From positions 1 through 64,000 of the IMG/VR virus record IMGVR_UViG_3300042391_001456: 64,000 bases of DNA; one strand, given 5' to 3'. The position numbers and the translations under genes are program-made. A model generated the notes under the pieces. It had not been told where the DNA came from and ran no database searches. It was given only the letters and a program-made list of their open reading frames with translations. Source of the DNA: a virus. Below are positions 1 through 62,040 of this stretch, piece after piece (position 1 is the first letter of the stretch; every line of letters begins with the position of its first letter).

Positions 1-3000
1 ATTATCTCTGTGTTTATAATCTGAGTTTAATGTTCCATACATATCATCATTGATGGATTCGTTTATTAAGCTCATGTAATCTATTACATTATCATAATAG
101 ACTTGAATTTCATACAACTTATTTAATGTTGATATTAGCATTGAATTTTTATCGGTATTAAAAATCAACTTTGAACCATTGGTTAATGGTATTGATTTTA
201 ATGTTTTTCCAAATAAATCCAATATTGTAATTTTTCCAGTTTCATAAACATAGATGAATGAATCATAGTAGTTTATAGACCATAGAGATGGAGTTGATGT
301 GTATGTATTTGAATCTTCAACTTGATTATTTCCATTTATAAATTTAATTAGACTACCATCAGTTGTTATTAAATTACTCCCTATTGTGTTTGTTAATACG
401 ATATTTCCTTTTGTATTTATTGGTGTTAATATATCGTTTAATATTCTATATAAATTATTTGAACTATCTTTAATTATAATACTATCATTTATTGAGTCAT
501 AGTGTATAAAATCTTTATTTAAGTTGAGTAAGGTAAATTCTTTTAATTTAGTTATAGTAGAATCTATTTGAAATATTTTATTATCTGATATAATATAAGA
601 TTTATTTTCTTTTTCATTCCATTTTATATTATATAAATTAACATTTAGAATACCATTTAACCCTGTTGTTGTTATGACACTATTTAATGTGTTTTTTATG
701 GAATTTAATTGGTTTATATTTCCAAGTATGGGAGCGGAGTTTAAACTATAATTCGGTTGTATAGTTGTTATATTACTATTAGTATCATAAGTTACTGATT
801 GTGCTTTTCCGGTCCATTTTCCAGTTCCTGTTGATGTGTTATATGTAAAATTAAATTCACTACCTATTTTAATTGAAGTTGTTATATCACCATTGATTAA
901 TATTGTATCTGTATAAACTTTACCACTCACATTATTATTGATTGTTGCTGTAGTTGATAATGTATTAACAACTTCTACGTTATAATTATTCAATATTGAT
1001 ATTGTTCCATCTATAAATATGATATATTTATAACCACTTTTATGATTTGATGATAAATACTTTGGTGTTTTTGTAAATTTTGTTATGTTTGATGATATGT
1101 CTACTATAGGATCAACTCTAATAATTGATTTTGATAGAAGACAATAAATTAAATTATCGAATTTATTGAATTCTAATTTAAGTCCATATCCTTCTGTTGT
1201 TTCTAAACCTAAGTTTATTATATTTTTAACTTTATTTGTCGTTGAATCTACCTTTAATAGGATTGTTGATGTTAATTTTTTTGCTAAAACATAATAGGAG
1301 TTTGATAACTGTACTGTTATTATATCATAAATATTATCAACATAAGTTTCAATTTCCAATAGCTCAACTCCTTTTATTGTTGAATCTATTTTAGCTGAGA
1401 AAAGAGTTTTATTAAAATGATTTAGATTTAAATCTGAGTTTTTTATAAAATCTGGTGTGTAACTAGCCGTTATTCCGAATCCTAAGTTAAATCCTAATGT
1501 TGAGTATGCTGATGAGTTATAAATTGAATTGGTTAATCCCCAAAATGGTCCTTGGTAACTTAATCCAACTTTGTTTTTATCTACATATTGTATATTATAT
1601 TCTTGATTATCATATACAAATCCTGAGTTGTTGATAGATATTAACATACCGGTTGATAATCCTATATTTTCAAAATTTCTAGTATCTATTTCATCATCTT
1701 TGAGAGTTATTTCATTCGATGAAATAACAATTCCGGTATTTGATTTATTTTTATTAATAATAAAAAAATCTTCATTTCCTGGTATTTGTATTTTTCCAAT
1801 ATTTATCTTTATATCCAATCTTCTATCTGGATATTTTGTGTCTACCTTAATTGAGTTATTTATATATGTAACAATTATACCATATTCTAAAAGTGTTGAT
1901 TTGTGTTTTACTACCCAATTGGATAAAGTTAATTGTATACTTATTGACGTGTTGATTGTATATAATTTATCATTTATATCAATAGTTAATAGTTTTGATA
2001 AATTTGATAAATTTGATATATTTTTAAAAGCCAAAATAGAGTTTTCAACGTAATAGTCTCCGCCAGTACCAACCTCTACTTTTAGTGATATTGGAACATT
2101 TGGAAAAAATGTTTTAAGTATTATAGAGTTTTGAAAATCAGAGTAATTACCGATGAAGTCTATTTCAGATACTATTCCTAATGTGTATAGTTTAACATAG
2201 TTAATTGTTAACCAATTTCTAAGAGTTCGATCTATGGTTCTTTCTAAATCCGGTTCACCTGCGTTATATATCCAGATAACATCTGACTCATATATTTGTC
2301 CGTTTATGGTTAATTTAATTCCCCAATCATCGATATCAGTGAAAATAATATTATATTTTGAATTATTTGAATAATTATAATTCATTTCTGTGTTTAGACT
2401 CTCTTGTACCTCAATCAATCTTTCATTTTTTTGAATTGTTGTTGATATCAAATTACTTGGTAATGCTTCTGTGTGATAGAAGTTAACCTCGGCATATTTG
2501 GATGAGTATTTTAGATCTGCTTTTAATTCATCATTTGAAAAATATAAATCTATATTATATAATTCTAAATTTGATCTGTACTTTTCGGCAGTTGATGAAA
2601 ATGTGTTTTTTGCATTTAATGTCCAATTGTATTCAAAATAGTCTTTATTTGTTGTTAAATAAATTTGGCATTTTTGAATATATTCTTTATTTATACTACC
2701 TTTTATTGGTAGAAATGATGTTTTATTCCAATATTCTGAATTTTCAGGAGTTATTGATGAGTTATTTATTTGATCTTGTGTATACGCTTTTACACACTCC
2801 CATATTTGATTATTATAAATAACCTGTGATTGTGTTGCGTAATAAGTTAAATTAAGATTTTTTGAAAAAACCGGTACATTTGATATGGTGTAATAATTTT
2901 TATTCAATTGTGATCCTGATATAGTAAATTCGGATCCTGGTTTTAAATTAGATGGGACATCTAAAAAATTATTAAAATATATTCTATTATCTTTTATTTC

Positions 3001-7980: not shown

Positions 7981-8277
7981 ATGAATAAGGTTATATTTCA
8001 ATTTTGGGAAAATTCTATAGAAAACGTTGATGTTATACCTGATGGTTGTTCTATACACATAGATGAGATTGAGTTTAATAGATGGATTGATAGTATTTAC
8101 TCTACCCGTGATTTAAATGATATCCCAGAAGAATATGATAGAGTTATTGGTGATAAATTAATAGCTTTTGTAGAAGATGATCTATTTAAAAAAGTTGAAA
8201 ATTTTAAAACAATAAGACTATCTCAAAATCAACTTAATAATCTTATATTAATGGATGAAATAACCATTAAAGAATAA
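7981..8277 (+). CDS. Hypothetical protein (QFWE...PDGCSIH)
   Basis: ORF preceded by an AAACTT-N12-ATATAA element. Confidence 0.7.
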   Translation: MNKVIFQFWENSIENVDVIPDGCSIHIDEIEFNRWIDSIYSTRDLNDIPEEYDRVIGDKLIAFVEDDLFKKVENFKTIRLSQNQLNNLILMDEITIKE

Positions 8278-8802
8278 TTAAACATTAAATTTCTTTAAAT
8301 GTTCTTCGGTTATGATTATAAAATCATAACCTTTTTTGTTGCACCAATTTATCATGGTTTCCCATTTTTGTTTATTCTTGTACGCCATTTTTAAATCATA
8401 TTCAAAGTTTTTCAACTTTTTACCTTTATCTTCTGGTACTTGTAATCTACCTTCTGTTAAAGCTTGTACAAAATTATATTCTTTCTGTGGTTTAACTTCA
8501 GCAACTACCTGTCTTAAAACTCCATTTATTCTCATTTCATAATAGAAATCGACATGATATACATGGCTTTTTATTTTAGTGTCTCCATTTTCAAAGTGGG
8601 TCATTTGATATGGAATTTGTAAACATTCAGCTCCCCATTTAGTTATCTCTGGTTTTAGATCTAACCAAATCATTATTTTTTTCTCCCAAGAACTCCTATA
8701 AAATAATCCACCTTGATCATTCAATTTAATTACCTTCTCTTTATTTTTTGGTATAAATAAACCACCGTGGTATTTATTGTTATTTGGTTTTGAATTTAAC
8801 AT
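8278..8802 (-). CDS. Head completion nuclease (T4 gp4-like, TnsA-type PD-(D/E)XK)
   Basis: YRSSWE...W..E...IPY...YHVDF...EVKP...N..KW...F.IITE. Confidence 0.9.
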   Translation of the reverse strand: MLNSKPNNNKYHGGLFIPKNKEKVIKLNDQGGLFYRSSWEKKIMIWLDLKPEITKWGAECLQIPYQMTHFENGDTKIKSHVYHVDFYYEMRINGVLRQVVAEVKPQKEYNFVQALTEGRLQVPEDKGKKLKNFEYDLKMAYKNKQKWETMINWCNKKGYDFIIITEEHLKKFNV

Positions 8803-8845
8803 AAAATAAATTTCTTTTATTTATATATAAAAGAAAAAACTTTCT

Positions 8846-9532
8846 ATGGGTTTATTAGACGATCGAGTTAAATTGAGTTTATTAATTAATGGTAATGGAC
8901 TGCCGGATAACTATAAAAATAATGCTCTACATTTAATGGAAAAAATAACAAAGAGTGATAAAGAATATACTGCTATAAATGTTACTGATATAAAAGCTGG
9001 TAGTTTTTGTTTTATTCAATATCAAGATCCATCGAATTGGATGAAATGGTCTCCTGTTTTTATTGTTGACTCAAAGAAGTTTGATAATAAAATAATTATA
9101 TTTGGGGTTAATTTAAATTTTATACCTCTTGAGGTTAGAACAGTTATTTTTGATCCGTATTTTATTGAAAAAAACTTTGATATTAATTTGCCATTAAAGG
9201 TGAATTATAAAGGAATGTATGATGAATTGTTGAAGTGGGGTTTTGAGTATTCATTGGTTGAATATAATGCAATTCAGATAAAAATGGTTCATCAGATAGA
9301 AATGAATTCTGTTCCGAGATTTATAATGTCTGGTCATCCATTGACTAAATATGATCCTCAAAAGTTAATCCAAATCTGGACTAAAAAATTAGAGACTAGA
9401 GATCAGAGACATAATGAAATGATGAATTCCTTAATTTCTGATTTTTATGAAATGGATGGTAAAATTAAAGAGCAATATCAAGTTCTTAAAGGTCATATAC
9501 AAAGAATTCAAAATTCTTTAAGAAGATTTTAA
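8846..9532 (+). CDS. DNA end-protector protein (T4 gp2-like)
   Basis: Y.DP...W...PVF...GVNLNFIP..R pattern; divergent from gp4. Confidence 0.6.
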   Translation: MGLLDDRVKLSLLINGNGLPDNYKNNALHLMEKITKSDKEYTAINVTDIKAGSFCFIQYQDPSNWMKWSPVFIVDSKKFDNKIIIFGVNLNFIPLEVRTVIFDPYFIEKNFDINLPLKVNYKGMYDELLKWGFEYSLVEYNAIQIKMVHQIEMNSVPRFIMSGHPLTKYDPQKLIQIWTKKLETRDQRHNEMMNSLISDFYEMDGKIKEQYQVLKGHIQRIQNSLRRF

Positions 9533-9552
9533 AATATTCTGAAAAAATTTAG

Positions 9553-9560
9553 TATATTTG
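9553..9560 (+). promoter_or_regulatory. Bacteroidota housekeeping-sigma -7 element (TATATTTG), early promoter
   Basis: Matches TAnnTTTG, intergenic, upstream of 9582. Confidence 0.7.
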
Positions 9561-9581
9561 TATATATTAAAAATCTAAAAA

Positions 9582-10028
9582 ATGGACTATAAAACTTATA
9601 TCTCTGCTGCAAAACAAGTATCTACTCTAGGTCAAAAAGATTTATCTTTAAGATTTATCAAACATGCTGAATTATTGGAAGAAATGAAAATAGTTGATAT
9701 GAAATTTGATATTTTGGTAGGTGAAGTCAAATCTTTTAATAATGCTAAATTTCAATCAGCTCGAGTTATTAGAGAGAAAGAAGGTAATACTATTATATTT
9801 ATTTTTACATCAGGTGAAAATACTCACCGTGTTAATGTAACTGTTAATAAAGATGGTTCTGTTTCTTGGTTAGATGGTAATAAATTTTCAAACAGACAAT
9901 CTGTTAATAGTTTTATTAAATTATTTAAACATCTAAAAAATTATAAAAAAGATATAATAAAATTATTAGATGAATTATCACTAACTGAAACTAATCTGAA
10001 ATTCTCAAACCGAACATTTTATATCTAA
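9582..10028 (+). CDS. Hypothetical early protein
   Basis: ORF behind a host-type promoter. Confidence 0.7.
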   Translation: MDYKTYISAAKQVSTLGQKDLSLRFIKHAELLEEMKIVDMKFDILVGEVKSFNNAKFQSARVIREKEGNTIIFIFTSGENTHRVNVTVNKDGSVSWLDGNKFSNRQSVNSFIKLFKHLKNYKKDIIKLLDELSLTETNLKFSNRTFYI

Positions 10029-10032
10029 TATT

Positions 10033-10257
10033 ATGAAATTTGACTATGAAATAATAAAGGATTTTATTATTGAAAAAGATCCTACAGTAAAAAGAAAAAA
10101 TATCATTTTTGAAAATGTTTATTTATCAGAAGAATTAATAATGGCTCCTTATAGAGAACTTATTTGGTCAAATAAATTTAGTGTTAAGTTAGAGGACTAC
10201 GAACATAGACTAAAAGAAAAGTTGAGAGATAATAAACTGAGTGAATTAGGAATATAA
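10033..10257 (+). CDS. Small hypothetical protein with C-terminal RDxK tag (LRDNKLSELGI)
   Basis: ORF followed by a terminator at about 10257-10285. Confidence 0.7.
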   Translation: MKFDYEIIKDFIIEKDPTVKRKNIIFENVYLSEELIMAPYRELIWSNKFSVKLEDYEHRLKEKLRDNKLSELGI

Positions 10258-10335
10258 AAAAAGAGGTTTTTAAACCTCTTTTTTTATTTTTAGGGAGTTA
10301 TTATTTTTATATATAACATTAAAATTAATTTTTTA

Positions 10336-12075
10336 ATGGCTTCTTATAATTATAGAAATAATAACAGTGGTGATGGAATGGGTTTTGTAAATTCCGCTGT
10401 TGAAAATAAAGGTCTTTTTAATAGAATACTTCGTAATTTATCCAATTATGGTATGAATTATGATGATATGATAATTAGAAACCAAGTTGGTGTCGGTATT
10501 AATGAAGATCCTTATAGTGCTAAGGGTGATTCAATGTATAATTTCTTTTCACAGAGAGCTGTTGCTTCTGTTTTGAATAGAAAATCTATTCCTTATTTAG
10601 ATAGATCTTATCCAGATAAAAGAAGAATATTAAGAGAATATTCTATTAAAGATGAAATTAGAGATTTTGTTAGTGCAATTGCAGATGAATCAATTGTGTA
10701 TAATGATACAAAAGATTTCTGTTCACCATCTCCTCTTTCAAATGATTATTCTAAGGAAATAACTGATAAGTATCAAGAATACTTTGAGAAAGTTTACAAT
10801 AAATTTGGATTTTCTGATAGTGTAACTGCTTATCAAATGATGAAAGATTTTCTAATCGATGGTTATCTTGCAATTGAATTAGTTTGGGATGATAAAAAGA
10901 AGAATATTATTGCTTTTAATAGATTAAGACCAGAGAGTATAGTTCCTGCTTATGAGCCAAATGTTGGACACTTATGGATTCAATTTCCGGAAGATCCTCA
11001 GTTAAGAAGAATATTTTTAGATTCACAAATTGTTTTTATATCCTATTCTTCTCAGAATGATTATTCAGAGACATCATATGTTGAGGGTTTGATTAAGCCT
11101 TATAATCAGTTAAAAATTCTAGAACAAACTAGAATTATGTTTAACATTATGAATGCGACAATTTATCAAAAATTCACTATTCCAATTAAAGGTATGTCTC
11201 GTCAAAAAGCCGAAGAACAAATAGGTCAATTGATACAGGATTACTCGGAAGAGATTGAATTTGATGAATCATTAGGTACTATTCAGGTTAATGGGGCTAA
11301 ACACATACCTTATAATAAACAAGTTTGGTTCCCAGAGGGTGATGCTGGTACGCCAAATATGGAATTAATGACTCCACAAGGACATGATTTAAATGAAGAG
11401 TCTATGTTAAAGTGGTTTCATCAAGCACTTAAAAGAGCTTCTAAAATACCAGTTACTAGGTTTGAAGCTGAGAGTGGTGGTGGTACATTTGTAGCAGATC
11501 AATCTGGATTAACTAATGATGAGGTTAAATTTCATAATTTTATTGGTAGATTAAGAGCTAATTTTAAAGAATTAATTGTTAAACCAATAAAATTGCAAAT
11601 GTTAGTTGAGTTTCCTGAACTTATTGAAGATGATGTTGTTATGAATGAAATAGATATTAATTTCAACTCTAATCAAATTTTTGAAGAATGGAAAAAAATA
11701 AATAACTTAGCAAAAAGAGCCGAGGCAATTGGTACATTGACTGGTATTATGAATGGTGATAAACCTTATTTTCATATTGAATGGATTATGGATCATGTGT
11801 TTAAATTGACACCGGAGGAAAAAGCAGAGAATCAAAAATACTGGGCAAAGGATAGTTCTGGTGTTGGTTCTGGTGGTGCTCAGGGTGGTGCTCAAGGTGG
11901 AATGGATATGGGTGCTCAAGGTGGTGCTCAAGGTGGAATGGATATGGGTGCTCAAGGTGGTGCTCAAGGTGGAATGGATATGGGTGCTCAGGGTGGTGCT
12001 CAAGGAGGTCAAGCGGCTCCTGAAACTCCACCAGCTCAAGGTGGTGCTCAAGGTGGTGCTGAATTTGAATTCTAA
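10336..12075 (+). CDS. Portal protein (T4 gp20-like) with Gly/Gln-rich C-terminal tail
   Basis: FLIDG, SYVE..IKPYNQLKILE, KAEEQI, ASKIPVTR, DEVKF..FI.RLR..F. Confidence 0.95.
   Translation: MASYNYRNNNSGDGMGFVNSAVENKGLFNRILRNLSNYGMNYDDMIIRNQVGVGINEDPYSAKGDSMYNFFSQRAVASVLNRKSIPYLDRSYPDKRRILREYSIKDEIRDFVSAIADESIVYNDTKDFCSPSPLSNDYSKEITDKYQEYFEKVYNKFGFSDSVTAYQMMKDFLIDGYLAIELVWDDKKKNIIAFNRLRPESIVPAYEPNVGHLWIQFPEDPQLRRIFLDSQIVFISYSSQNDYSETSYVEGLIKPYNQLKILEQTRIMFNIMNATIYQKFTIPIKGMSRQKAEEQIGQLIQDYSEEIEFDESLGTIQVNGAKHIPYNKQVWFPEGDAGTPNMELMTPQGHDLNEESMLKWFHQALKRASKIPVTRFEAESGGGTFVADQSGLTNDEVKFHNFIGRLRANFKELIVKPIKLQMLVEFPELIEDDVVMNEIDINFNSNQIFEEWKKINNLAKRAEAIGTLTGIMNGDKPYFHIEWIMDHVFKLTPEEKAENQKYWAKDSSGVGSGGAQGGAQGGMDMGAQGGAQGGMDMGAQGGAQGGMDMGAQGGAQGGQAAPETPPAQGGAQGGAEFEF
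11875..12060 (+). repeat. 36-bp tandem repeat x3 plus partial copies (GAQGGAQGGMDM) in the portal tail
   Basis: GGTGCTCARGGTGGTGCTCAAGGTGGAATGGATATG units at 11875, 11911, 11947. Confidence 0.95.
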
Positions 12076-12085
12076 AAATTACTAT

Positions 12086-12118
12086 AAAAAAACCTCTCAA
12101 TATTTGAGAGGTTTTTTT
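12086..12118. terminator. Bidirectional intrinsic terminator
   Basis: AAAAAAACCTCTCAA-TAT-TTGAGAGGTTTTTTT. Confidence 0.85.
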
Positions 12119-12575
12119 ATGCTACATTATTTTCTTCTTTTATGTAAAAGTGACTGAATTGATCATCTATAAAACTCATTGATATTTCTAATTCAATTCC
12201 TGAATCCAATAGACCTATTATTGTTCTACCTAACTCTGTCTGTAATGGTCTCCATTCTATTTCCAACTCCTCAATAAAATCATTCTTTATAATCATTGAT
12301 ATAGTTTTCACTGCAAAAACTATATCAGATAACATTGGATCTGATGATCTATCACTACCAAGTTTGCCCCATTCATTAATATCTTCAATATCAAATTGAA
12401 TTCTTTTCCCCTCTAATAAAGAGTTTAATTTAATTTCTCTTTTAAATTGAATCCAGTTGGGCCACTTTTGTAATTTATCTTCAAATTGAGATATTTTGAT
12501 CCCATCTAAATAAAATTTATACTTTCTATTTTTTAGATGTGAATCACCACCATCTATTCTAAATAATTGACTCAT
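12117..12575 (-). CDS. Degenerate prohead-protease (gp21) paralog with internal RExK tag
   Basis: WGKLGSD...MLSD and RPLQTELGRTIIGLLDSGIELEISMS align by eye with YGEFDHP...SLSR and RLLSTYWGKEAKALVDDGCPVFVSSR of ORF 51590. Confidence 0.55.
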   Translation of the reverse strand: MSQLFRIDGGDSHLKNRKYKFYLDGIKISQFEDKLQKWPNWIQFKREIKLNSLLEGKRIQFDIEDINEWGKLGSDRSSDPMLSDIVFAVKTISMIIKNDFIEELEIEWRPLQTELGRTIIGLLDSGIELEISMSFIDDQFSHFYIKEENNVA

Positions 12576-51589: not shown

Positions 51590-53713
51590 ATGAAACCAGT
51601 TTTAATTGTAGAAAATTCGACTAATTCCTTAATTAAGGAATCTGTAGCTAAGAACGATTATATATTAGGTGGTATTTTCACTGAATTCGGAGTTAAAAAC
51701 CGTAATGAAAGAATTTACACAGCTGATAAATTTCTTCCAGCTTTACAGGAGATGAATGAAAGAATGTCTGGATTAGGAGCCGTTTACGGTGAATTTGATC
51801 ATCCAGATGTTTTTGATACTTCATTATCAAGAGCTTCTCACATAATTACAAAAGCTAATTATGTTCAGGAATCTAATCACGTTGCTGGTGAAATCAGATT
51901 ATTAAGTACTTATTGGGGTAAAGAAGCTAAGGCGCTTGTCGATGACGGGTGTCCTGTTTTTGTTTCTTCTAGAGCAGCAGGTATTACTGAATCTGATGGA
52001 TCAGTATCTCTTAAAAAATTATTTACTTATGATATCGTTGCTGACCCTGGATTTGCATCTGCAAAGATGAGTGTTAAGGTCTTAAATGAGTCATTAGGTT
52101 ATGATAATCCACAATCTAACTTTAGGATATATGAAATGTCCGATGAGTCAAAAATAAATGATCTATTTAACATGAATAAAAATGAATTTGTTACCAAGCA
52201 ACAATTAACTGACTATTCTAAATATTTAGTTAATGAATTAGCTTCTACTAAAAAAGAAGTTAAAACTGCTATTTCTAAAGGTAATTTAACACCTAAGAAA
52301 TTAGAGCAACTACTTGAGTATTATGATGAGTTAAATACTACTAATACACAAGTTGTTAAGTATTTAGATTATTTAGCTGAAAAAGTTCAAATTATGGTTA
52401 ATGAGAATAAGTCTTTGAAAGAAACAACAGACAAACTTATTAAACACAATGACTATTTAGCTGAAAATCTTGAAAAAGCTGTTAATTACTCTGAGTATTT
52501 AGCTGAAAATTTAGATAAGAATATTGCTTATTCTGAATATGTAGCTGAGAACTTAGATAAAAACATCTCTTATTCTGAGTATATCGCTGAGAACTTAGAT
52601 AAAAATATTGCTTATTCTGAGTATATCGCTGAGAACTTAGATAAAAATATTGCTTATTCTGAGTATATCGCTGAGAACTTAGATAAAAATATTGCTTATT
52701 CTGAGTATATCGCTGAGAACTTAGATAAAAACATCGCTTATTCTGAGTATATCGCTGAGCACGTTGATAATAATATTGCGTATTCTGAATATTTAGCTGA
52801 GCACGTTGAGGGAAATATCGCTTATTCTGAGTATATCGCTGAGAATTTAGATGATAACATCGCTTATTCTGAGTATATCGCTGAGAATTTAGATAAATCT
52901 ATTTCTTACTCTGAAATGATTACTGAAACACTTAAGGGTGGTAAAGTATTCGAATCATATGAAAATTTCCCAACATTACAAGATGCTGGAATTTCAGCAA
53001 TTGAATCTGAAAAAGAAGAAGTTGAAGAAAGAGAAGAAGAAAGAGAAGATTTAGGTATCTCTCACATTTCAGACGAAAAAGAATATTACACAGAAGAAGA
53101 AAAAGAAGAAAATATTGAAAATTTAGAAGAAGAAAAAGAAGAAGAAGAAGATTGTACACCTGCTTATGAAGAAAAAACATTTAATGGTGATACTGATACT
53201 GAGCTGTCTTTATCTATCGATAAACTAATTGAGGAAGCTAAAAAACGTAAAGTTTCTGAAACATCAGATTTGAATTTCTTGAAATTCTTATCTAAATCAC
53301 AAGTTGATAGTTTTTATGCATTAACTAATGAAGAGCAAGAAACTGTTAAACTTCACATAAACGAAAGAAGTTACTTCACAGGAAAAGAAGTTCTTACATT
53401 AATTTCTGAAGCACTATCAACTAAAAATGAAACTCTTGAAGAAAGAGTTATCAGAATGATGCCTGAAAACACTAAGGCTATCTGGAATCAGTTAAATGAA
53501 TCTGCTAAAAAATCTTTCCTTTCACAGGCTAGATTATACCCAGAGGAAATGTTGATGACTGAATCACAAGTTGATCATTTCTGGGGAACTAGAAACATCA
53601 AAACAAATGAATCTGTAACTAAAAAATTAGTTTCTCATGATGCTTTAATTCAAGAAGATAAATTATCTGATAATGAAGTTAGTGCTATTATGGAAAGGTT
53701 CAAAAATATTTAA
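51590..53713 (+). CDS. Prohead protease (T4 gp21-like) fused to a scaffold/core region
   Basis: KNRNERIY, GEFDHP, SH.I, VSSRAAG, TYDIVADPGF; then coiled-coil repeats and an acidic linker; directly upstream of the capsid gene. Confidence 0.93.
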   Translation: MKPVLIVENSTNSLIKESVAKNDYILGGIFTEFGVKNRNERIYTADKFLPALQEMNERMSGLGAVYGEFDHPDVFDTSLSRASHIITKANYVQESNHVAGEIRLLSTYWGKEAKALVDDGCPVFVSSRAAGITESDGSVSLKKLFTYDIVADPGFASAKMSVKVLNESLGYDNPQSNFRIYEMSDESKINDLFNMNKNEFVTKQQLTDYSKYLVNELASTKKEVKTAISKGNLTPKKLEQLLEYYDELNTTNTQVVKYLDYLAEKVQIMVNENKSLKETTDKLIKHNDYLAENLEKAVNYSEYLAENLDKNIAYSEYVAENLDKNISYSEYIAENLDKNIAYSEYIAENLDKNIAYSEYIAENLDKNIAYSEYIAENLDKNIAYSEYIAEHVDNNIAYSEYLAEHVEGNIAYSEYIAENLDDNIAYSEYIAENLDKSISYSEMITETLKGGKVFESYENFPTLQDAGISAIESEKEEVEEREEEREDLGISHISDEKEYYTEEEKEENIENLEEEKEEEEDCTPAYEEKTFNGDTDTELSLSIDKLIEEAKKRKVSETSDLNFLKFLSKSQVDSFYALTNEEQETVKLHINERSYFTGKEVLTLISEALSTKNETLEERVIRMMPENTKAIWNQLNESAKKSFLSQARLYPEEMLMTESQVDHFWGTRNIKTNESVTKKLVSHDALIQEDKLSDNEVSAIMERFKNI
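52445..52927 (+). repeat. 42-bp (14-aa) in-frame tandem repeat YSEYIAENLDKNIA, 10 full copies plus 2 degenerate
   Basis: Units start at 52487 and step by 42 to 52907. Confidence 0.97.
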
Positions 53714-56616: not shown

Positions 56617-58452
56617 ATGGCAGAAGAAACAAATCTACCAAAAATAAAAATATCTAAAGAATTAGCATCGGTATTACAAAAAACTGAAGACTTAGGTGAT
56701 TATATCTCATTTGAAATAATTTGTATGGGTGATGATGATAGTGAGCATTTTAATGGTTTAAAAATTACAGATGTGAATGTTTCAAAAAAAGATTTTTGTT
56801 TTGAAGTAACTACATTAGATGGTAAGAAAATGGATATGAAGTGTGGTAATTTCATTAGATACTACTTTCATAACTATTTTACACCAAGTGATATTCAAAA
56901 CTTCGTAAACCTTTATAATAAAGTTAAAAATGGTGAGTCAGTGGCTGATGAAAAAATTCCAATCAATGTTTCAAAGTTTGAATATAATCCGTTAGATCCG
57001 AGATCTACTTTTCTTTCACTTGTTACTAAAACATATCCACATGGACACGAAGATGAAGTTCTTCAATTCTTACCACAATTGGATAAAGATATCGTTGGAA
57101 ACTATTACAAAATAATTGGAGATAATCCAACAACAATGTTTACATGTCATTTAGATACTGCTGATAGAAAACAGGCTGTTACAAGACTTTATTCTATACA
57201 AGTTGATGATCAAGAACATATTGTTACCGATGGTACAACTGTATTAGGAGCTGATGATAAATCAGGAACAACAGTTATGTTATATATGATGGCAAAAAAT
57301 GTACCAGGTCTTTATTACTTCTTTATCGGAGAAGAAAGGGGTGGTATTGGATCTAGAGCTTTAGCTGATAAATATGATGAAGTTTCTTATTTAAAAAATA
57401 TTAAAAGATGTGTTTCTTTTGATAGAAGAAAGACTATTTCAGTTATCACCTCACAAGCAGGTGGTGTTTGTTGTTCTGATGAATTTGCAAATGCTCTTTG
57501 TGATGAGTATAATAAAAATGGATTAAATCTTAAACCAGACCCAACTGGAGTATTTACTGATTCGGCTTCATTCATTGATGATATTTCAGAATGTACAAAT
57601 GTTTCTGTTGGATATCTTAACGAACATACTGGTAAAGAAATTCAAAATATGGATTATTTAATAGATTTATGTAAAGCATCTGTTAATGTTAATTGGGATT
57701 CATTACCAACTGTTAGAACTGTTCAAGATAGAGCAGCTATGAAAGAAATGATTAATAGAGTAAAATCTTCAAATAAAGAATTTGTTGATTCGTTAAAAGG
57801 TGTTAATTTGGATAAAACTATTTCCACAGATTATGGAAATGTATATGTTAATTTTGATTTAGATAATGAGTCTCTTGATAACATCATTGAAAGTTTAACA
57901 GAGTTGAGAAAGGTAATGAGATTACACAAAAAGCCAGCTTCTTGTTTATTCGATGAAACTTATTTACAAATATTTTTAGGTAAAGAAAGTGGTCAAAAAA
58001 TAACAACACTTGATATTGAAGATGATGATAAATATGAGTCTCAAAAATTAAAAAAATATGAACAATTTTTAACTGAAAAATACTGGGATGATGAAGATGG
58101 TCAAGATGAAGATGAAGAAGATAACGATAAAGAACAAGATATAGAACATCTTAAATATCTTTTAAGGCAAATGTTGACTAAAGCAGGTATTAAGAATTCT
58201 ACAATAACTAATAATGGATTGAATTTAAAAATTCAAATTATTCCACCATCGTATGGGATGATTGACTATTTTTATAAATTAGATGATATTATACACATCT
58301 ATGAAACAATTAAAAAGTTTGATAAAGATATTTTAGTTGATTTTGATTTAGAGTGTGATATTTGGGAAACTAAAAAAATAGAACCTCTTTTAATTTTCAA
58401 TTTCTATTCTAACCAAGATGATTATGAAGATGAATCTGGTTTACCATTTTAA
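56617..58452 (+). CDS. M28/M20-like zinc peptidase with internal tag (KLKKYEQFLTE) and an extra C-terminal domain
   Basis: CHLDT, LGADDKSG, GEERG..GS, SFDR, TDS, N.SVGY..EHT. Confidence 0.85.
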   Translation: MAEETNLPKIKISKELASVLQKTEDLGDYISFEIICMGDDDSEHFNGLKITDVNVSKKDFCFEVTTLDGKKMDMKCGNFIRYYFHNYFTPSDIQNFVNLYNKVKNGESVADEKIPINVSKFEYNPLDPRSTFLSLVTKTYPHGHEDEVLQFLPQLDKDIVGNYYKIIGDNPTTMFTCHLDTADRKQAVTRLYSIQVDDQEHIVTDGTTVLGADDKSGTTVMLYMMAKNVPGLYYFFIGEERGGIGSRALADKYDEVSYLKNIKRCVSFDRRKTISVITSQAGGVCCSDEFANALCDEYNKNGLNLKPDPTGVFTDSASFIDDISECTNVSVGYLNEHTGKEIQNMDYLIDLCKASVNVNWDSLPTVRTVQDRAAMKEMINRVKSSNKEFVDSLKGVNLDKTISTDYGNVYVNFDLDNESLDNIIESLTELRKVMRLHKKPASCLFDETYLQIFLGKESGQKITTLDIEDDDKYESQKLKKYEQFLTEKYWDDEDGQDEDEEDNDKEQDIEHLKYLLRQMLTKAGIKNSTITNNGLNLKIQIIPPSYGMIDYFYKLDDIIHIYETIKKFDKDILVDFDLECDIWETKKIEPLLIFNFYSNQDDYEDESGLPF

Positions 58453-58500: not shown

Positions 58501-58532
58501 TTTGTATATTTAAAATATTATATATATATTTG
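58501..58532 (+). promoter_or_regulatory. Full Bacteroidota consensus promoter TTTG-N20-TATATTTG for the tmRNA
   Basis: TTTG 58501-58504, TATATTTG 58525-58532. Confidence 0.8.
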
Positions 58533-58554: not shown

Positions 58555-58920
58555 GGGGGCGTCATTAGATTCGCCTAGCAGTGTGTAGGTGGTTATGCAG
58601 GAATCGGGTTTTCATATGTCCGATCAATAAATTATATGATAACGTCGTAAATGGCAAAACAAATGAAGTAGGAACTCGTGAAGATTTAGTAGCGGCCCTA
58701 AACGCAATCAAAGCTGAAGAGCTTGAATTAGTTTAATTAAGAGAAACTAATCAAAAAAATTCTCCGACTGTATCACACAGTAAATGTGAAACCAGAATTG
58801 TTAGAGTGATGGGTTAATTCAACTAACTATTTTGTAAGTTTAGAAAAATTTACTATTCCTGTGAATGAGTAATTACAAACAGCTGATTAGTACACCCGGG
58901 GCGGTTCCGGGTCGCTTCCA
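58555..58920 (+). ncRNA. ssrA: tmRNA
   Basis: Acceptor stem GGGGGCG/CGCTTCC-A with G3.U70; T-arm ACCCGG/CCGGGT; long P2 helix (GCAGGAAT/ATTCCTGT); pk1 (TCGGGT/GTCCGA with TCATAT/ATATGA); tag ORF 58653-58736; terminator follows. Confidence 0.9.
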
Positions 58921-58925
58921 CTAAA

Positions 58926-58954
58926 CAAAGTCCACTTTTAAAGTGGACTTTTTT
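58926..58954 (+). terminator. Intrinsic terminator after the tmRNA
   Basis: AAAGTCCACTTT-T-AAAGTGGACTTTTTT. Confidence 0.85.
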
Positions 58955-58975: not shown

Positions 58976-59467
58976 ATGAGTTCTATTGAAGGTTTTAAAG
59001 GAGAATGGTCATTCTTATCGAATTTTTATCCATGTGAGATTCAATATGATGGATTAACTTATAAAAGTGTAGAACATTTTTATGTTGCTATGAAATTCAA
59101 TAATGAACAAATGATTAATGGGAAACATTATACTATTGGAGATTTTCGAGAAATGATTTCACTCACACCAAGTCCTGGTTTAGTTAAAAAAATTGGTCAA
59201 AAAATTATAATAAGATCTGATTGGGATATCAGAAAATTGAGATTTATGAATTGGGCAATTCGTGAGAAGTTTAAAGATATAAACTTATCAGAACTTCTTA
59301 TTGGCACAGAAGATATGGAATTAGTTGAGTCTAATAATTGGAATGATACTTTTTGGGGAGTTTGTAACGGAAAAGGTAAAAATCATCTTGGTAAAATATT
59401 GATGAAGGTTAGAGATGAGCTAAGAGGTGTTGAGAAAAAAACTGGTTTAGAAGAATTTTTTAATTGA
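58976..59467 (+). CDS. NADAR (YbiA-like) hydrolase
   Basis: FLSNFY, Y.SVEH...A.K, R.DW, KF...L..LL..T...LVE...WND.FWG...G.N.LG.ILM.VR. Confidence 0.92.
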   Translation: MSSIEGFKGEWSFLSNFYPCEIQYDGLTYKSVEHFYVAMKFNNEQMINGKHYTIGDFREMISLTPSPGLVKKIGQKIIIRSDWDIRKLRFMNWAIREKFKDINLSELLIGTEDMELVESNNWNDTFWGVCNGKGKNHLGKILMKVRDELRGVEKKTGLEEFFN

Positions 59468-59522: not shown

Positions 59523-60476
59523 ATGTGCGCAATGATAAGTTATTTTGGTGGTAAGAGTTCAAATGTTTTCCACGAATTTATAAATAAAAAAATACCCAAA
59601 GATGGTAGTATAAAAACCTATTTAGAAGCATTTAGTGGTTCAATGGGTACTTACTTAGATGATGATTCTTTAAAATTTGACACGGTTATCTATAATGATA
59701 AAAACCGTCATCAAGTTAATTTGTATTATTGTTGTTCGAAACCAGAAGAATTTTTACCTTATTTAGAAAATCTTAAAAATACTTTATTAAAGACTGAAGA
59801 AACAGAAGTTTTAAAAAAGTGGGATTTCTATAAAGGTATTTATAAGGAGTATCAAAAGAATGATTTTTTAGATAATACTGATTTCCAAATTGGAGACTTT
59901 GAAAAGGCCGCTATTTATGCTTTTCTTATCACATCCGCTCACAACTCTGTGTACCCACGTGGAGCGGGCTTCAATGGTTACAAAAAAGATAAAGATAGAC
60001 TTAAATTGGAAGTTCTTATTGATAAATTAAAAAAGAACAAATATACAGAGAAGTTACAATCAATCACTGAGTATAATAACATCGATTTTGAAGAACTTAT
60101 TACTAAATATGATAGTGTGGATACTTATATCTATTTAGATCCACCATATGCAAGATTTAACGAAGGTAAAGGAGATGATGATGGTAAGAGATTGTTTTGG
60201 TACGGTTCTGATAAGGATGGTGTATTTGGTCCAGCTTCACATAGAAGACTTTTAGAGTTGATTAAAAAATCAGAAGCTAGATGGTCATTATCATATTACT
60301 ATTTTCCACTTTTAGAAGAGTTATTACCGAGAGATAAATATTTTTGGTTTGAGAAAGAAGTATTTAGAAGCTCTGCACAAGGTGGTAATAATGCCGATCT
60401 TAAAAAAGAACAAGAAAAAGGAGTTGAGTTATTGATATTAAACTACAATCCGGAGACTGGTGAAAAAATAAAGTAG
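59523..60476 (+). CDS. DNA adenine methyltransferase (Dam/D12 class)
   Basis: YFGGKS, EAFSGS, YND, YLDPPY. Confidence 0.9.
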   Translation: MCAMISYFGGKSSNVFHEFINKKIPKDGSIKTYLEAFSGSMGTYLDDDSLKFDTVIYNDKNRHQVNLYYCCSKPEEFLPYLENLKNTLLKTEETEVLKKWDFYKGIYKEYQKNDFLDNTDFQIGDFEKAAIYAFLITSAHNSVYPRGAGFNGYKKDKDRLKLEVLIDKLKKNKYTEKLQSITEYNNIDFEELITKYDSVDTYIYLDPPYARFNEGKGDDDGKRLFWYGSDKDGVFGPASHRRLLELIKKSEARWSLSYYYFPLLEELLPRDKYFWFEKEVFRSSAQGGNNADLKKEQEKGVELLILNYNPETGEKIK

Positions 60477-60479
60477 TTT

Positions 60480-61169
60480 ATGTATAGTGATTTAATAAAA
60501 GGAGTTAATGAATTATTAAGTATTGATACAAGAGACTTTTTAATTTTAGATGATACTATAACATCTAATAAGAATACTGTAAGTATTTCTGTTCATCTCA
60601 CAGCAAACGATTCAAATATAGAACAATTTGTTAGTCATGTTAAATATGAAGTTTTTAGAACTTTATATAAGTACATCTTTAAACAGATGAAATTTAATAA
60701 TAAATTTATTGATTTGAGAAATCTTAAATTTACTGAGAAATTAAATAGGACTAGTTTATTTTTATCTCAATTTAAATATAAAAACATATTGAGTAATAGT
60801 AGAATATCGACTGAACTACAAGATTCATTATCTTTTCATTTTTCTAAAATGAAACCAAATACATCCAGTGATATTTATGAAATAGGTAAGTATTTAGATT
60901 TTGAAGCTTATGTTGATCCATATCTTAGATATAGTGATGAAGAGATTTATTTATTTAATGATATACGATTTAATATAAATAACTTTCAATATGATGTTAT
61001 CAGTGAAGCAACTTTTACACCAAGATTGATGATTACTTATGATTTTTATTTTGAAATATTTGATAATGAAATAGTTTATATCATAGATGATGAGTTTCAA
61101 AAATCATTACCAATTCTATTATCTCAAATTAGAGACGAAAAAATAGATAAACTTATAAATGGCAATTAA
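60480..61169 (+). CDS. Truncated, degenerate major-capsid-protein paralog with C-terminal RDxK tag
   Basis: YEIG...YVDPYLRYSD..I.L and VISEATFTPRLMI match capsid YPVG...YVDPYMKYND..I.L and VISEATFAPRMLL; ends IRDEKIDKLINGN. Confidence 0.85.
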   Translation: MYSDLIKGVNELLSIDTRDFLILDDTITSNKNTVSISVHLTANDSNIEQFVSHVKYEVFRTLYKYIFKQMKFNNKFIDLRNLKFTEKLNRTSLFLSQFKYKNILSNSRISTELQDSLSFHFSKMKPNTSSDIYEIGKYLDFEAYVDPYLRYSDEEIYLFNDIRFNINNFQYDVISEATFTPRLMITYDFYFEIFDNEIVYIIDDEFQKSLPILLSQIRDEKIDKLINGN

Positions 61170-61419
61170 TCCACCAAATCCATTTCTTGTTAATTCATCG
61201 ACTAATCAGTCAATTCCACTTCTTATCAATTCATCGACTGGTGAATCGGCACTTATAGTTGACTCGGATGGTAATGTTATAGTTAAGAAATTAGTTTTAT
61301 TGGATGATAAAACTGGAAAGAAATGGGAGGTAAAAATTTCTGATGGTGAAATTTACATGGAGCCTCTTGAAAAATCTGATAAAAGAGATTTTAAAATAAA
61401 AAAGATTTTAAATGACTAA
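61159..61419 (+). CDS. Small protein with C-terminal RDxK tag (KRDFKIKKILND)
   Basis: ORF overlapping both neighbours. Confidence 0.75.
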   Translation: MAINPPNPFLVNSSTNQSIPLLINSSTGESALIVDSDGNVIVKKLVLLDDKTGKKWEVKISDGEIYMEPLEKSDKRDFKIKKILND

Positions 61420-61735
61420 ACACTTAGATAGAATATACAAAATGGGATTTATTGTAACATTAGATTGGAATATGTGTTTTACGATAACTTTACCACACTA
61501 TCATTCTCCAAATTTTGGTCATGAGTGTAATGTTTTAGTCTGTCAATTTGATGATACGATCATAAATATAAAATTTTCAGAGGTTGTTGAATATTGCTGT
61601 GATATTTTTTATGAATGGTATAATGAATATGTTCATATAATAGATGATACAACTCCAGAAGAGTTTAGTAAAATAACTTTAGGTAACATAACAACTCGTG
61701 TTAATAGAGACTTAAAATTAGATAAACTACTATAA
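61412..61735 (+). CDS. Small protein with C-terminal RDxK tag (NRDLKLDKLL)
   Basis: ORF followed by a bidirectional terminator at about 61738-61766. Confidence 0.75.
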   Translation: MTKHLDRIYKMGFIVTLDWNMCFTITLPHYHSPNFGHECNVLVCQFDDTIINIKFSEVVEYCCDIFYEWYNEYVHIIDDTTPEEFSKITLGNITTRVNRDLKLDKLL

Positions 61736-61767
61736 ACAAAAAGAGAGTCAAATGACTCTCTTTTTGT

Positions 61768-62040
61768 TTATCTTAATTTGTTAGTCCAATTACCAATTTT
61801 CCTTTGGGTAGTTAAATCTTTCATAGCTCCAAAATTAGCTGTTGGTTTATTCCAATCTATTAGTTTTCCATTCATGTGTGTTAACATAGGATCAGTACCT
61901 CTATATAAATCCATTACTTTTCTATTAGCATCATCTATATCATCTGCTTCAATTTCTACCACTTCATCATTTTTATTTAGAAGAGTGTAAGTATAAGTAT
62001 TTGACTCATTAAAATTAGTCCAATTTTTAATTTTATTCAT
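61768..62040 (-). CDS. Tagged small protein (MNKIKNWTNFNES)
   Basis: Start moved to ATG 62040. Confidence 0.7.
   Translation of the reverse strand: MNKIKNWTNFNESNTYTYTLLNKNDEVVEIEADDIDDANRKVMDLYRGTDPMLTHMNGKLIDWNKPTANFGAMKDLTTQRKIGNWTNKLR

Follow-up and report, generated by a model that had tools for sequence, protein, structure and literature searches.

A compact, tailed HK97-fold paralog of the major capsid protein in a relative of the huge Bacteroidota phages, possibly an accessory capsid look-alike

Introduction

Bacteriophage T4 carries, downstream of the gene for its gp23-type major capsid protein (MCP), a gene for a second HK97-fold protein, the paralog gp24 (PDB 1YUE), which has about 427 amino acids (aa) and includes an insertion domain. 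Family 1 encapsulins, such as those of Thermotoga maritima and Quasibacillus thermotolerans, are compact HK97 folds of 200-270 aa that possess an N-terminal helix and are known to assemble. Core-only proteins are also encoded by phages MA9V-2 (gp215, 244 aa) and PTm1 (ORF-116, 191-197 aa), and both are annotated as hypothetical protein. Here we describe a gene, termed mini-MCP, at 60480..61169 (+ strand) of the viral contig IMGVR_UViG_3300042391_001456 from IMG/VR; its 229-aa product was recognised from the open reading frame (ORF), BLASTP, hhalign and AlphaFold as a compact HK97-fold paralog of the MCP of the same phage. The window that was analysed is the first 64 kb of this 102,753-bp contig, which has an estimated completeness of 18% and a G+C content of 27%.

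Like T4 gp24, mini-MCP is a paralog of the gp23-type MCP of its own genome and is encoded downstream of it. Unlike gp24, it is a bare core of 229 aa with a C-terminal tail helix, lies in an operon with a NADAR-domain gene and a methylase gene, evolves far faster than the MCP and is patchily distributed. It resembles gp23-type MCPs (PF07068; T4 gp23, 7VRT) in its sequence homology to the MCP of the phage and in its best structural match (Z 11.2); however, it has no PF07068 match, has neither the propeptide nor the insertion domain and is under half their size. Its compact fold, its N-terminal helix and structural alignments at Z 9-9.8 recall the encapsulins, as does the short conserved C-terminal peptide in which the genes beside it end. 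By contrast, mini-MCP shows no sequence relationship to encapsulins, is tailed itself and has no recognisable cargo enzyme. MA9V-2 gp215 and PTm1 ORF-116 are core-only like mini-MCP but lack its tail; ORF-116 matches the family profile and groups with the mini-MCP family, whereas gp215 is an independent copy.

Results

The MCP of the phage (53798..55489, +; 563 aa) was assigned to the gp23 type by Pfam (Gp23, PF07068, 2.2e-28) and to the major head protein family phrog_138. In BLASTP, mini-MCP residues 103-185 aligned with MCP residues 440-533 at 33% identity (E = 8e-12). A preliminary description of the window, made from the letters alone, had reported three collinear blocks shared by proteins of 229 and 563 aa; all three blocks fell inside this single alignment, and both sizes agreed with the ORFs. 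When either protein was searched against the contig, the MCP and mini-MCP loci were the sole strong matches. Profile-profile alignment with hhalign, in which a 124-sequence mini-MCP family alignment was set against a small MCP profile, extended the homology to mini-MCP 33-191 and MCP 317-539 (170 columns, 99.3% probability, E = 1.9e-20). The matched span opens with the return strand of the E-loop, takes in the spine helix and the A-domain and closes with the long P-domain strands. Judged by BLASTP and profile-profile homology, mini-MCP is derived from the MCP lineage of its own phage, as had been proposed. No Pfam family was matched at E<=0.01, and hence neither PF07068 nor the encapsulin models; the one PHROG match, to phrog_28442, was weak (E = 5.6e-4). 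A profile search of PDB sequences with the mini-MCP family returned nothing meaningful, and the ESM Atlas gave no usable match.

An AlphaFold2 model of mini-MCP built from the 124-sequence alignment was predicted with high confidence (predicted local distance difference test score, pLDDT, 92.5; predicted template modelling score, pTM, 0.86). The deep alignment was needed, since a shallow alignment of 27 close relatives gave an unusable model (pLDDT 41). The model begins with an N-terminal helix (residues 2-14), a short hairpin (21-39) and a 26-residue helix (44-69). Residues 75-159 then form a region of mixed alpha/beta structure, a pair of long strands occupies 162-193, one more strand follows at 196-202, and an extra helix (210-227) ends the model. 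By topology only, the hairpin would occupy the E-loop position, the 26-residue helix would be the spine helix and residues 75-159 the A-domain, with the long strands of the P-domain at 162-193 and the last A-domain strand at 196-202. The predicted E-loop position is merely a 19-residue hairpin. Foldseek searches with the model yielded 142 PDB and 146 BFVD matches at E<=1e-3, and among the matches listed all those with an informative description were HK97-fold capsid proteins or encapsulins. VIA-align found 263 chains at Z>=8. The best match was T4 gp23 (7VRT; Z 11.2, 184 residues), followed by phage HRP29 (Z 11.1, 200 residues) and T4 gp24 (1YUE; Z 10.4, root-mean-square deviation 3.7 Å, 197 residues, model 1..205 against chain 5..422), and T7, HK97 and encapsulins were aligned at Z 9-10.3. 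Judged against the features that define the fold (spine helix, A-domain, long P-domain strands, E-loop and N-arm), the model belongs to the HK97 superfamily. Comparison with the HK97 fold, which had been suggested as a check, thus placed mini-MCP in that fold both by profile alignment and by Foldseek.

The same comparison changes how the protein is to be viewed. It had been described as a truncated capsid protein without the N-terminal half, but the homology reaches mini-MCP 33-191 and MCP 317-539, and model residues 1-207 align to whole HK97-fold proteins. Since the structural alignment covers the whole protein over this range, a full HK97 core is present, and on the evidence of the model residues 1-207 (60480..61100, +; bounded by the secondary structure of the model and by VIA-align ranges of 1..205 with T4 gp24 and 18..204 with T4 gp23) are a complete minimal HK97 core rather than a fragment. 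What is absent relative to the MCP is the propeptide (about MCP 1-85) and an insertion domain of ~170 aa (about MCP 130-300), neither of which a protein of 229 aa could accommodate. By eye, D19-F-L-I-L-D-D of mini-MCP resembles D124-F-V-Y-D-D of the MCP, the strand immediately ahead of the insertion domain, and this likeness would fit a clean excision of that domain.

Mini-MCP belongs to a large family. A word-indexed search recovered 31 close clusters of 226-239 aa with 54-94% identity over the full length, and an exhaustive search recovered 168 clusters (50% identity clusters) at E<=1e-3, nearly all of 220-270 aa. A search for loci of the family with a narrower alignment gave three viral and five metagenome loci. 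Longer or fused forms were sought and none was found, which is weak evidence. Among six coding sequences, the ratio of nonsynonymous to synonymous substitution rates (dN/dS; Nei-Gojobori) was 0.32-0.52, and bootstrapping gave 0.43 (95% interval 0.27-0.74) and 0.39 (0.24-0.69), with both intervals below 1. The gene has the lowest G+C content in the region (22%, and 12% at third codon positions), so synonymous change is probably underestimated and the true dN/dS lower. From these alignments and ratios, mini-MCP is an intact, working gene under purifying selection, and its large family is unnamed and undescribed; the neutral evolution of a pseudogene, which by the preliminary description would have refuted its reading, was not seen.

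Purifying selection was accompanied by rapid divergence. Between this phage and LR745206, the MCPs were 68% identical and the mini-MCPs 30%. In a tree of the shared core, made by a quick maximum-likelihood search with support from the Shimodaira-Hasegawa-like approximate likelihood ratio test (SH-aLRT) only, terminal branches were ~10x longer for mini-MCP than for the MCP (0.89 versus 0.085 for LR745206). For the pair of relatives L028 and L029, the dN of mini-MCP (0.157) was the highest of eight genes compared, with 0.083 for the MCP and 0.035 for the methylase.

The MCP was 68-70% identical to the MCPs of the uncultured 634-642-kb phages LR745206 and LR756502; more remote relatives were found in the Lak phages, Tenacibaculum phage PTm1 and Chryseobacterium phages MA9V-1 and MA9V-2. 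From these MCP relationships, the phage is related to huge phages that infect Bacteroidota. Searches of such phages with the family profile revealed a patchy distribution of mini-MCP. It was found in LR756502 and in LR745206, where it has 243 aa and the tail. In LR756500 the match was a 313-aa protein (P0168) without the tail, in tandem with a 209-aa paralog and adjoining DNA-polymerase pieces, and in PTm1 it was ORF-116, between genes for a nucleoside triphosphate pyrophosphohydrolase and a helicase. The match in the 735-kb phage LR756501.1 (L041; 542302-542832, +) was a frame with one in-frame TAA, which could mean that the copy is broken, that there are two genes or that the stop is recoded. 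In LR756504, Lak-A1 and Lak-B1, which have the same MCP type, the profile matched the MCP alone and no mini-MCP was found. Such fast evolution and patchy distribution are less typical of a shell building block than of an accessory or conflict gene. Where gene order could be compared, mini-MCP and the MCP shared a strand, with mini-MCP downstream, in LR745206 and LR756502 as in this phage, where the distance is 5 kb.

Compact copies of the MCP were not confined to this family. A second compact paralog of 268 aa (family 2) is encoded outside the window (G000:C1:79009-79815, -; L005:1423-2229). It matched MCP residues 406-513 (E = 4e-10), had no BLAST match to mini-MCP and formed a conserved family of its own with an ortholog in LR745206. 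The gene directly follows one for a family-2 glycosyltransferase, with whose end it overlaps, and in its product residues 49-61, N-terminal to the HK97 part, form a tail-like N-R-[DE]-L-A-I-D-x-I-L-D-D-K. MA9V-2 gp215 matched residues 325-527 of the MCP of its phage (E = 6e-22), and its gene lies downstream of that MCP with a homing-endonuclease-like gene between them. In the tree, the mini-MCP family (SH-aLRT 96), family 2 (100) and MA9V-2 gp215 with its own MCP (95) formed clades; the placement of the long-branched rows of PTm1 and of the 209-aa LR756500 protein was unsure. Because gp215 grouped with its own MCP, it represents an independent duplication, and by this tree core-only MCP copies arose at least twice. 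The published study of the related phage MA9V-1 gives an SDS-polyacrylamide gel (SDS-PAGE) only, without protein identification.

The best-conserved part of the family is its C-terminus. The tail of mini-MCP, R218-D-E-K-I-D-K-L-I226 (61131-61157, +), lies in the extra C-terminal helix of the AlphaFold model (residues 210-227; 61107..61160, +). In the 124-sequence family alignment, G136 and R218 were the sole invariant residues. D146, K221 and I222 were retained by 90% or more of members, and the consensus end was R-D-x-K-I-D-x-I-L; as the 124 members were chosen by their score over the whole sequence, however, relatives with a tail were favoured. The tail was missing from PTm1 ORF-116 and LR756500 P0168, which belong to the family. 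In the 102-kb contig, six of the nine matches to the strict tail motif were no more than 10 residues from a C-terminus, a zone that holds ~13% of ORF residues, and nine ORFs carried the tail at the C-terminus when a slightly looser pattern was used. The codons for the Arg, Asp, Ile and Leu of the tail varied synonymously among copies, showing that the peptide is conserved and not a DNA signal. The R-D-x-K tail on mini-MCP, to which the preliminary description had drawn attention, is by its C-terminal bias (6/9) and this synonymous variation a real, selected peptide.

Tailed genes were also seen side by side in a relative. In LR745206 (L016, about 8215-11412), three consecutive small ORFs of 105, 158 and 78 aa were all tailed, ending in ...RDQKIDDILE, ...RDKKLKELGIC and ...RDQKLKELGI, respectively; tagged genes therefore form arrays in relatives too.

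Mini-MCP is the third gene of an apparent operon in the window. The first (58976..59467, +) encodes a NADAR domain (PF08719, 2.7e-24), and the second (59523..60476, +) encodes a D12-class (Dam-like) N6-adenine DNA methyltransferase (PF02086, 3.2e-11; phrog_56), the stop of which is 3 nt from the start of mini-MCP. The Pfam matches and the sequence thus bear out the earlier placement of mini-MCP downstream of NADAR and methylase genes. The stop of mini-MCP is overlapped by 11 nt by an 86-aa gene (p86; 61159..61419, +) with the tailed end ...KRDFKIKKILND, which is kept in L025, L028, L029 and LR745206 and absent in L027. The last gene, p107 (107 aa; 61412..61735, +), overlaps p86 and is tailed as well (...NRDLKLDKLL). 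A bidirectional terminator-like hairpin of 18 pairs, read from the sequence (61732..61771, either strand), closes the operon; similar hairpins follow the MCP and the peptidase genes, and another at 58927-58951 stands just upstream of the NADAR gene. Five related contigs and LR745206 kept the same order, that is, protease-scaffold, MCP, small genes, M28-like peptidase and a non-coding stretch, and then the operon with NADAR, a GIY-YIG endonuclease in some relatives, methylase, mini-MCP, p86 and p107.

The decamer TTAATATATA occurred 20 times in the window where 3.1 occurrences were expected. Sites such as 38178, 39233, 40624, 43596(-), 55608 and 56587 were found, and many starts had the decamer 5-25 nt upstream. 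The genes preceded by it include head-tail-adaptor-like and tail-fibre-like ones, and for this reason its position suggests that TTAATATATA is probably the late promoter of the phage. No exact TTAATATATA was found on the + strand between 56597 and 64000, in agreement with the earlier statement that mini-MCP has no late promoter of its own. A candidate host-type promoter, TTTG-N20-TAtaTTTG, was read from the sequence at 58501..58532 (+); the Bacteroidota promoter consensus is TTTG-N19-21-TAnnTTTG. This candidate precedes a G+C-richer non-coding stretch (58555-58925) and is thus upstream of the operon. A scan for sigma-70-type promoters was uninformative (68 found versus 72 expected). From its promoter context, the mini-MCP operon looks non-late.

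Several features near the operon were recorded. The non-coding stretch 58555-58925 (+) starts with GGGGCG, ends in ...CCACTA, contains a small frame ending in ...AIKAEELELV and has a look resembling transfer-messenger RNA (tmRNA); ARAGORN and Rfam identified no tRNA, tmRNA or known RNA family in it. The M28-like peptidase (56617-58452, +; phrog_4191, 1.3e-62) ends in ...DDYEDESGLPF, and its relatives in ...EDDGIPF or ...DDDEGLPF, an acidic tip that resembles the C-terminal tail of bacterial single-stranded DNA-binding protein (SSB). Between NADAR and methylase, L019 (8293-8934, -) and L029 (6293-6934, -) carry a 213-aa opposite-strand ORF, absent from the window, whose N-terminus looks GIY-YIG homing-endonuclease-like.

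The head genes are dispersed in the genome. The T4-type portal protein (10336-12075, +; PF07230, 3e-57) carries a string of GGAQGGMDMGAQ repeats at its C-terminus, and a 74-aa ORF ahead of it (10033-10257) ends in the tail variant ...RDNKLSELGI. Morons lie immediately 3' of the MCP, as does a gamma-glutamyl cyclotransferase gene. The 707-aa protein at 51590-53713 (+) has an N-terminus resembling a prohead protease and an extended series of ...YSEYLAENLDKNI... repeats, and from its sequence looks like a protease-scaffold fusion with acidic heptad-like repeats. An identity as an inactive protease paralog was considered for 12117-12575 and rejected, since it had no Pfam or PHROG support.

Discussion

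We tentatively favour the reading that mini-MCP is an accessory capsid-core look-alike and not a standard shell building block, and place its probability at roughly two in five (0.38). The protein would reproduce the HK97 core in compact form, but neither the insertion domain nor the propeptide, through which the MCP is tied to the scaffold. It is probably made before, or apart from, the late head genes, by co-transcription with the NADAR enzyme and the Dam-type methylase. Such a protein would display the surfaces of an unassembled capsid subunit to a partner that recognises capsid proteins; the partner could be a host sensor, an assembly factor of a rival or satellite, or the assembly machinery of the phage itself. 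The R-D-x-K-I-x-x-L helix, common to about ten unrelated small proteins of the phage, would link mini-MCP to a common partner or fate. Early or middle expression and exclusion from the shell would be expected of such a protein.

Several observations argue for an accessory look-alike. The gene context is non-structural in three lineages, namely the NADAR-methylase operon here and the loci in PTm1 and LR756500. The operon has no exact TTAATATATA, the gene evolves at ~10x the rate of the MCP, and the family was not found in Lak-A1, Lak-B1 and LR756504. The propeptide and the insertion domain are absent, a hairpin of just 19 residues stands at the E-loop position, and compact copies arose repeatedly. 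The tail is the best-conserved part of the family and is common to small unrelated ORFs.

Other observations weigh against an accessory look-alike. To our knowledge, no natural HK97-core protein is known as a free monomer, and all the well-studied ones build shells. Mini-MCP keeps a full core with its N-terminal helix, as do encapsulins, which assemble with similar minimal parts. It is encoded downstream of the MCP, and on the strand of the MCP, here, in LR745206 and in LR756502, and the independent MA9V-2 copy is also downstream; gene 24 of T4 likewise lies downstream of gene 23. The MCP itself has just a two-mismatch version of TTAATATATA, as has the region upstream of the methylase. As the head genes are dispersed, the distance of mini-MCP from any head module is weak evidence.

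The points of this kind lead to the second-ranked explanation, a gp24-like vertex (penton) protein or another minor capsid protein, situated at the eleven non-portal vertices or at another special position of the lattice. The preliminary description had called a gp24-like role less likely; we consider it somewhat less probable than an accessory look-alike, but it remains a serious rival, given that T4 gp23 and gp24 are the best structural matches and that the gene lies downstream of the MCP. At a vertex, the C-terminal helices of mini-MCP would lie near the capsomer axis. The protein retains the whole HK97 core, finds some of its best matches in T4 gp23 (Z 11.2 over 184 aa) and T4 gp24 (Z 10.4 over 197 aa), and is specifically homologous to the MCP of its own phage. 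The family is old, of constant length and under purifying selection. The arrangement in MA9V-2, in which a homing-endonuclease-like gene separates the MCP and its compact copy, recalls the T4 gene order 23-segD-24, and gp24, the only well-studied MCP paralog of a phage that we know of, is a vertex protein. A vertex role sits poorly, however, with an operon shared with NADAR and methylase genes and lacking an exact late-type motif, and with a protein that evolves ~10x faster than the MCP lattice into which it would have to fit. The profile search found no mini-MCP in Lak-A1, Lak-B1 or LR756504, gp24 keeps the insertion domain and propeptide that mini-MCP lacks, and the tail is common to small proteins without a structural look. 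The second compact paralog family could equally supply a vertex protein.

An immune decoy, the role put forward originally, is a subset of the look-alike reading in which the mimic blocks a capsid-triggered host sensor or poisons the capsids of competitors. NADAR and Dam-type methylase proteins have counter-defence roles, and the gene is presumably co-transcribed with genes of these types; its rapid divergence and patchy occurrence are what conflict genes typically show, and it has kept the fold of a capsid monomer. Nevertheless, no precedent for a decoy made from capsid protein turned up in the literature search, and dN/dS was <1 throughout, with no positive selection seen at this resolution. 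We therefore regard this specific role as improbable, well below a vertex or minor capsid protein. The broader proposal that huge Bacteroidota phages have repeatedly evolved free, non-assembling, tagged mini capsid-core mimics, made outside the late programme and directed by a short C-terminal peptide that dozens of accessory proteins also bear, is also unlikely, though slightly less so; such mimics might act, for example, by blinding capsid-sensing host immunity or by disturbing the assembly of rival capsids.

A small encapsulin-like shell, with the tail serving as a loading or docking peptide for tagged neighbours, appears quite improbable and ranks below the look-alike and the vertex protein. 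Its size and N-terminal helix are like those of encapsulin protomers (model residues 1-200 align to several encapsulins at Z 9-9.8), and the two genes directly downstream, with several elsewhere, end in the same short peptide; C-terminal peptides of this kind are also found on encapsulin cargo. However, the tail is present on the candidate shell protein too, unlike encapsulin shells; profile and tree derive it from the phage MCP and not from encapsulins, with no Pfam encapsulin match, and tailless family members exist (PTm1 ORF-116 and LR756500 P0168). A decaying remnant of a partial capsid-gene duplication, left for instance by a homing endonuclease such as those encoded near the MCP or within the operon in relatives, was ruled out for practical purposes by an intact ORF of constant length in 31 close and 168 distant clusters, by dN/dS of 0.43 and 0.39 and by a confident predicted fold.

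The HK97 fold is known almost solely as a building block of shells, and here it occurs in a large unnamed core-only family (168 clusters), whose copies are tagged, evolve fast and have genes for replication and counter-defence as neighbours in the largest known phages. The common C-terminal tail may, from its pattern of conservation, be an undescribed addressing signal in its own right. The cultured phages MA9V-2 and PTm1 carry untagged compact counterparts, so that presence in the virion can be addressed there, though not the role of the tail. If the compact copies are vertex proteins, they would be the smallest known and would show how very large capsids close. If instead they are mimics, mini-MCP would provide the first example of an HK97 fold used for something other than a shell, as well as the first capsid decoy, and free mimics of this kind would represent a new means by which phages counter capsid-sensing immunity or competitors.

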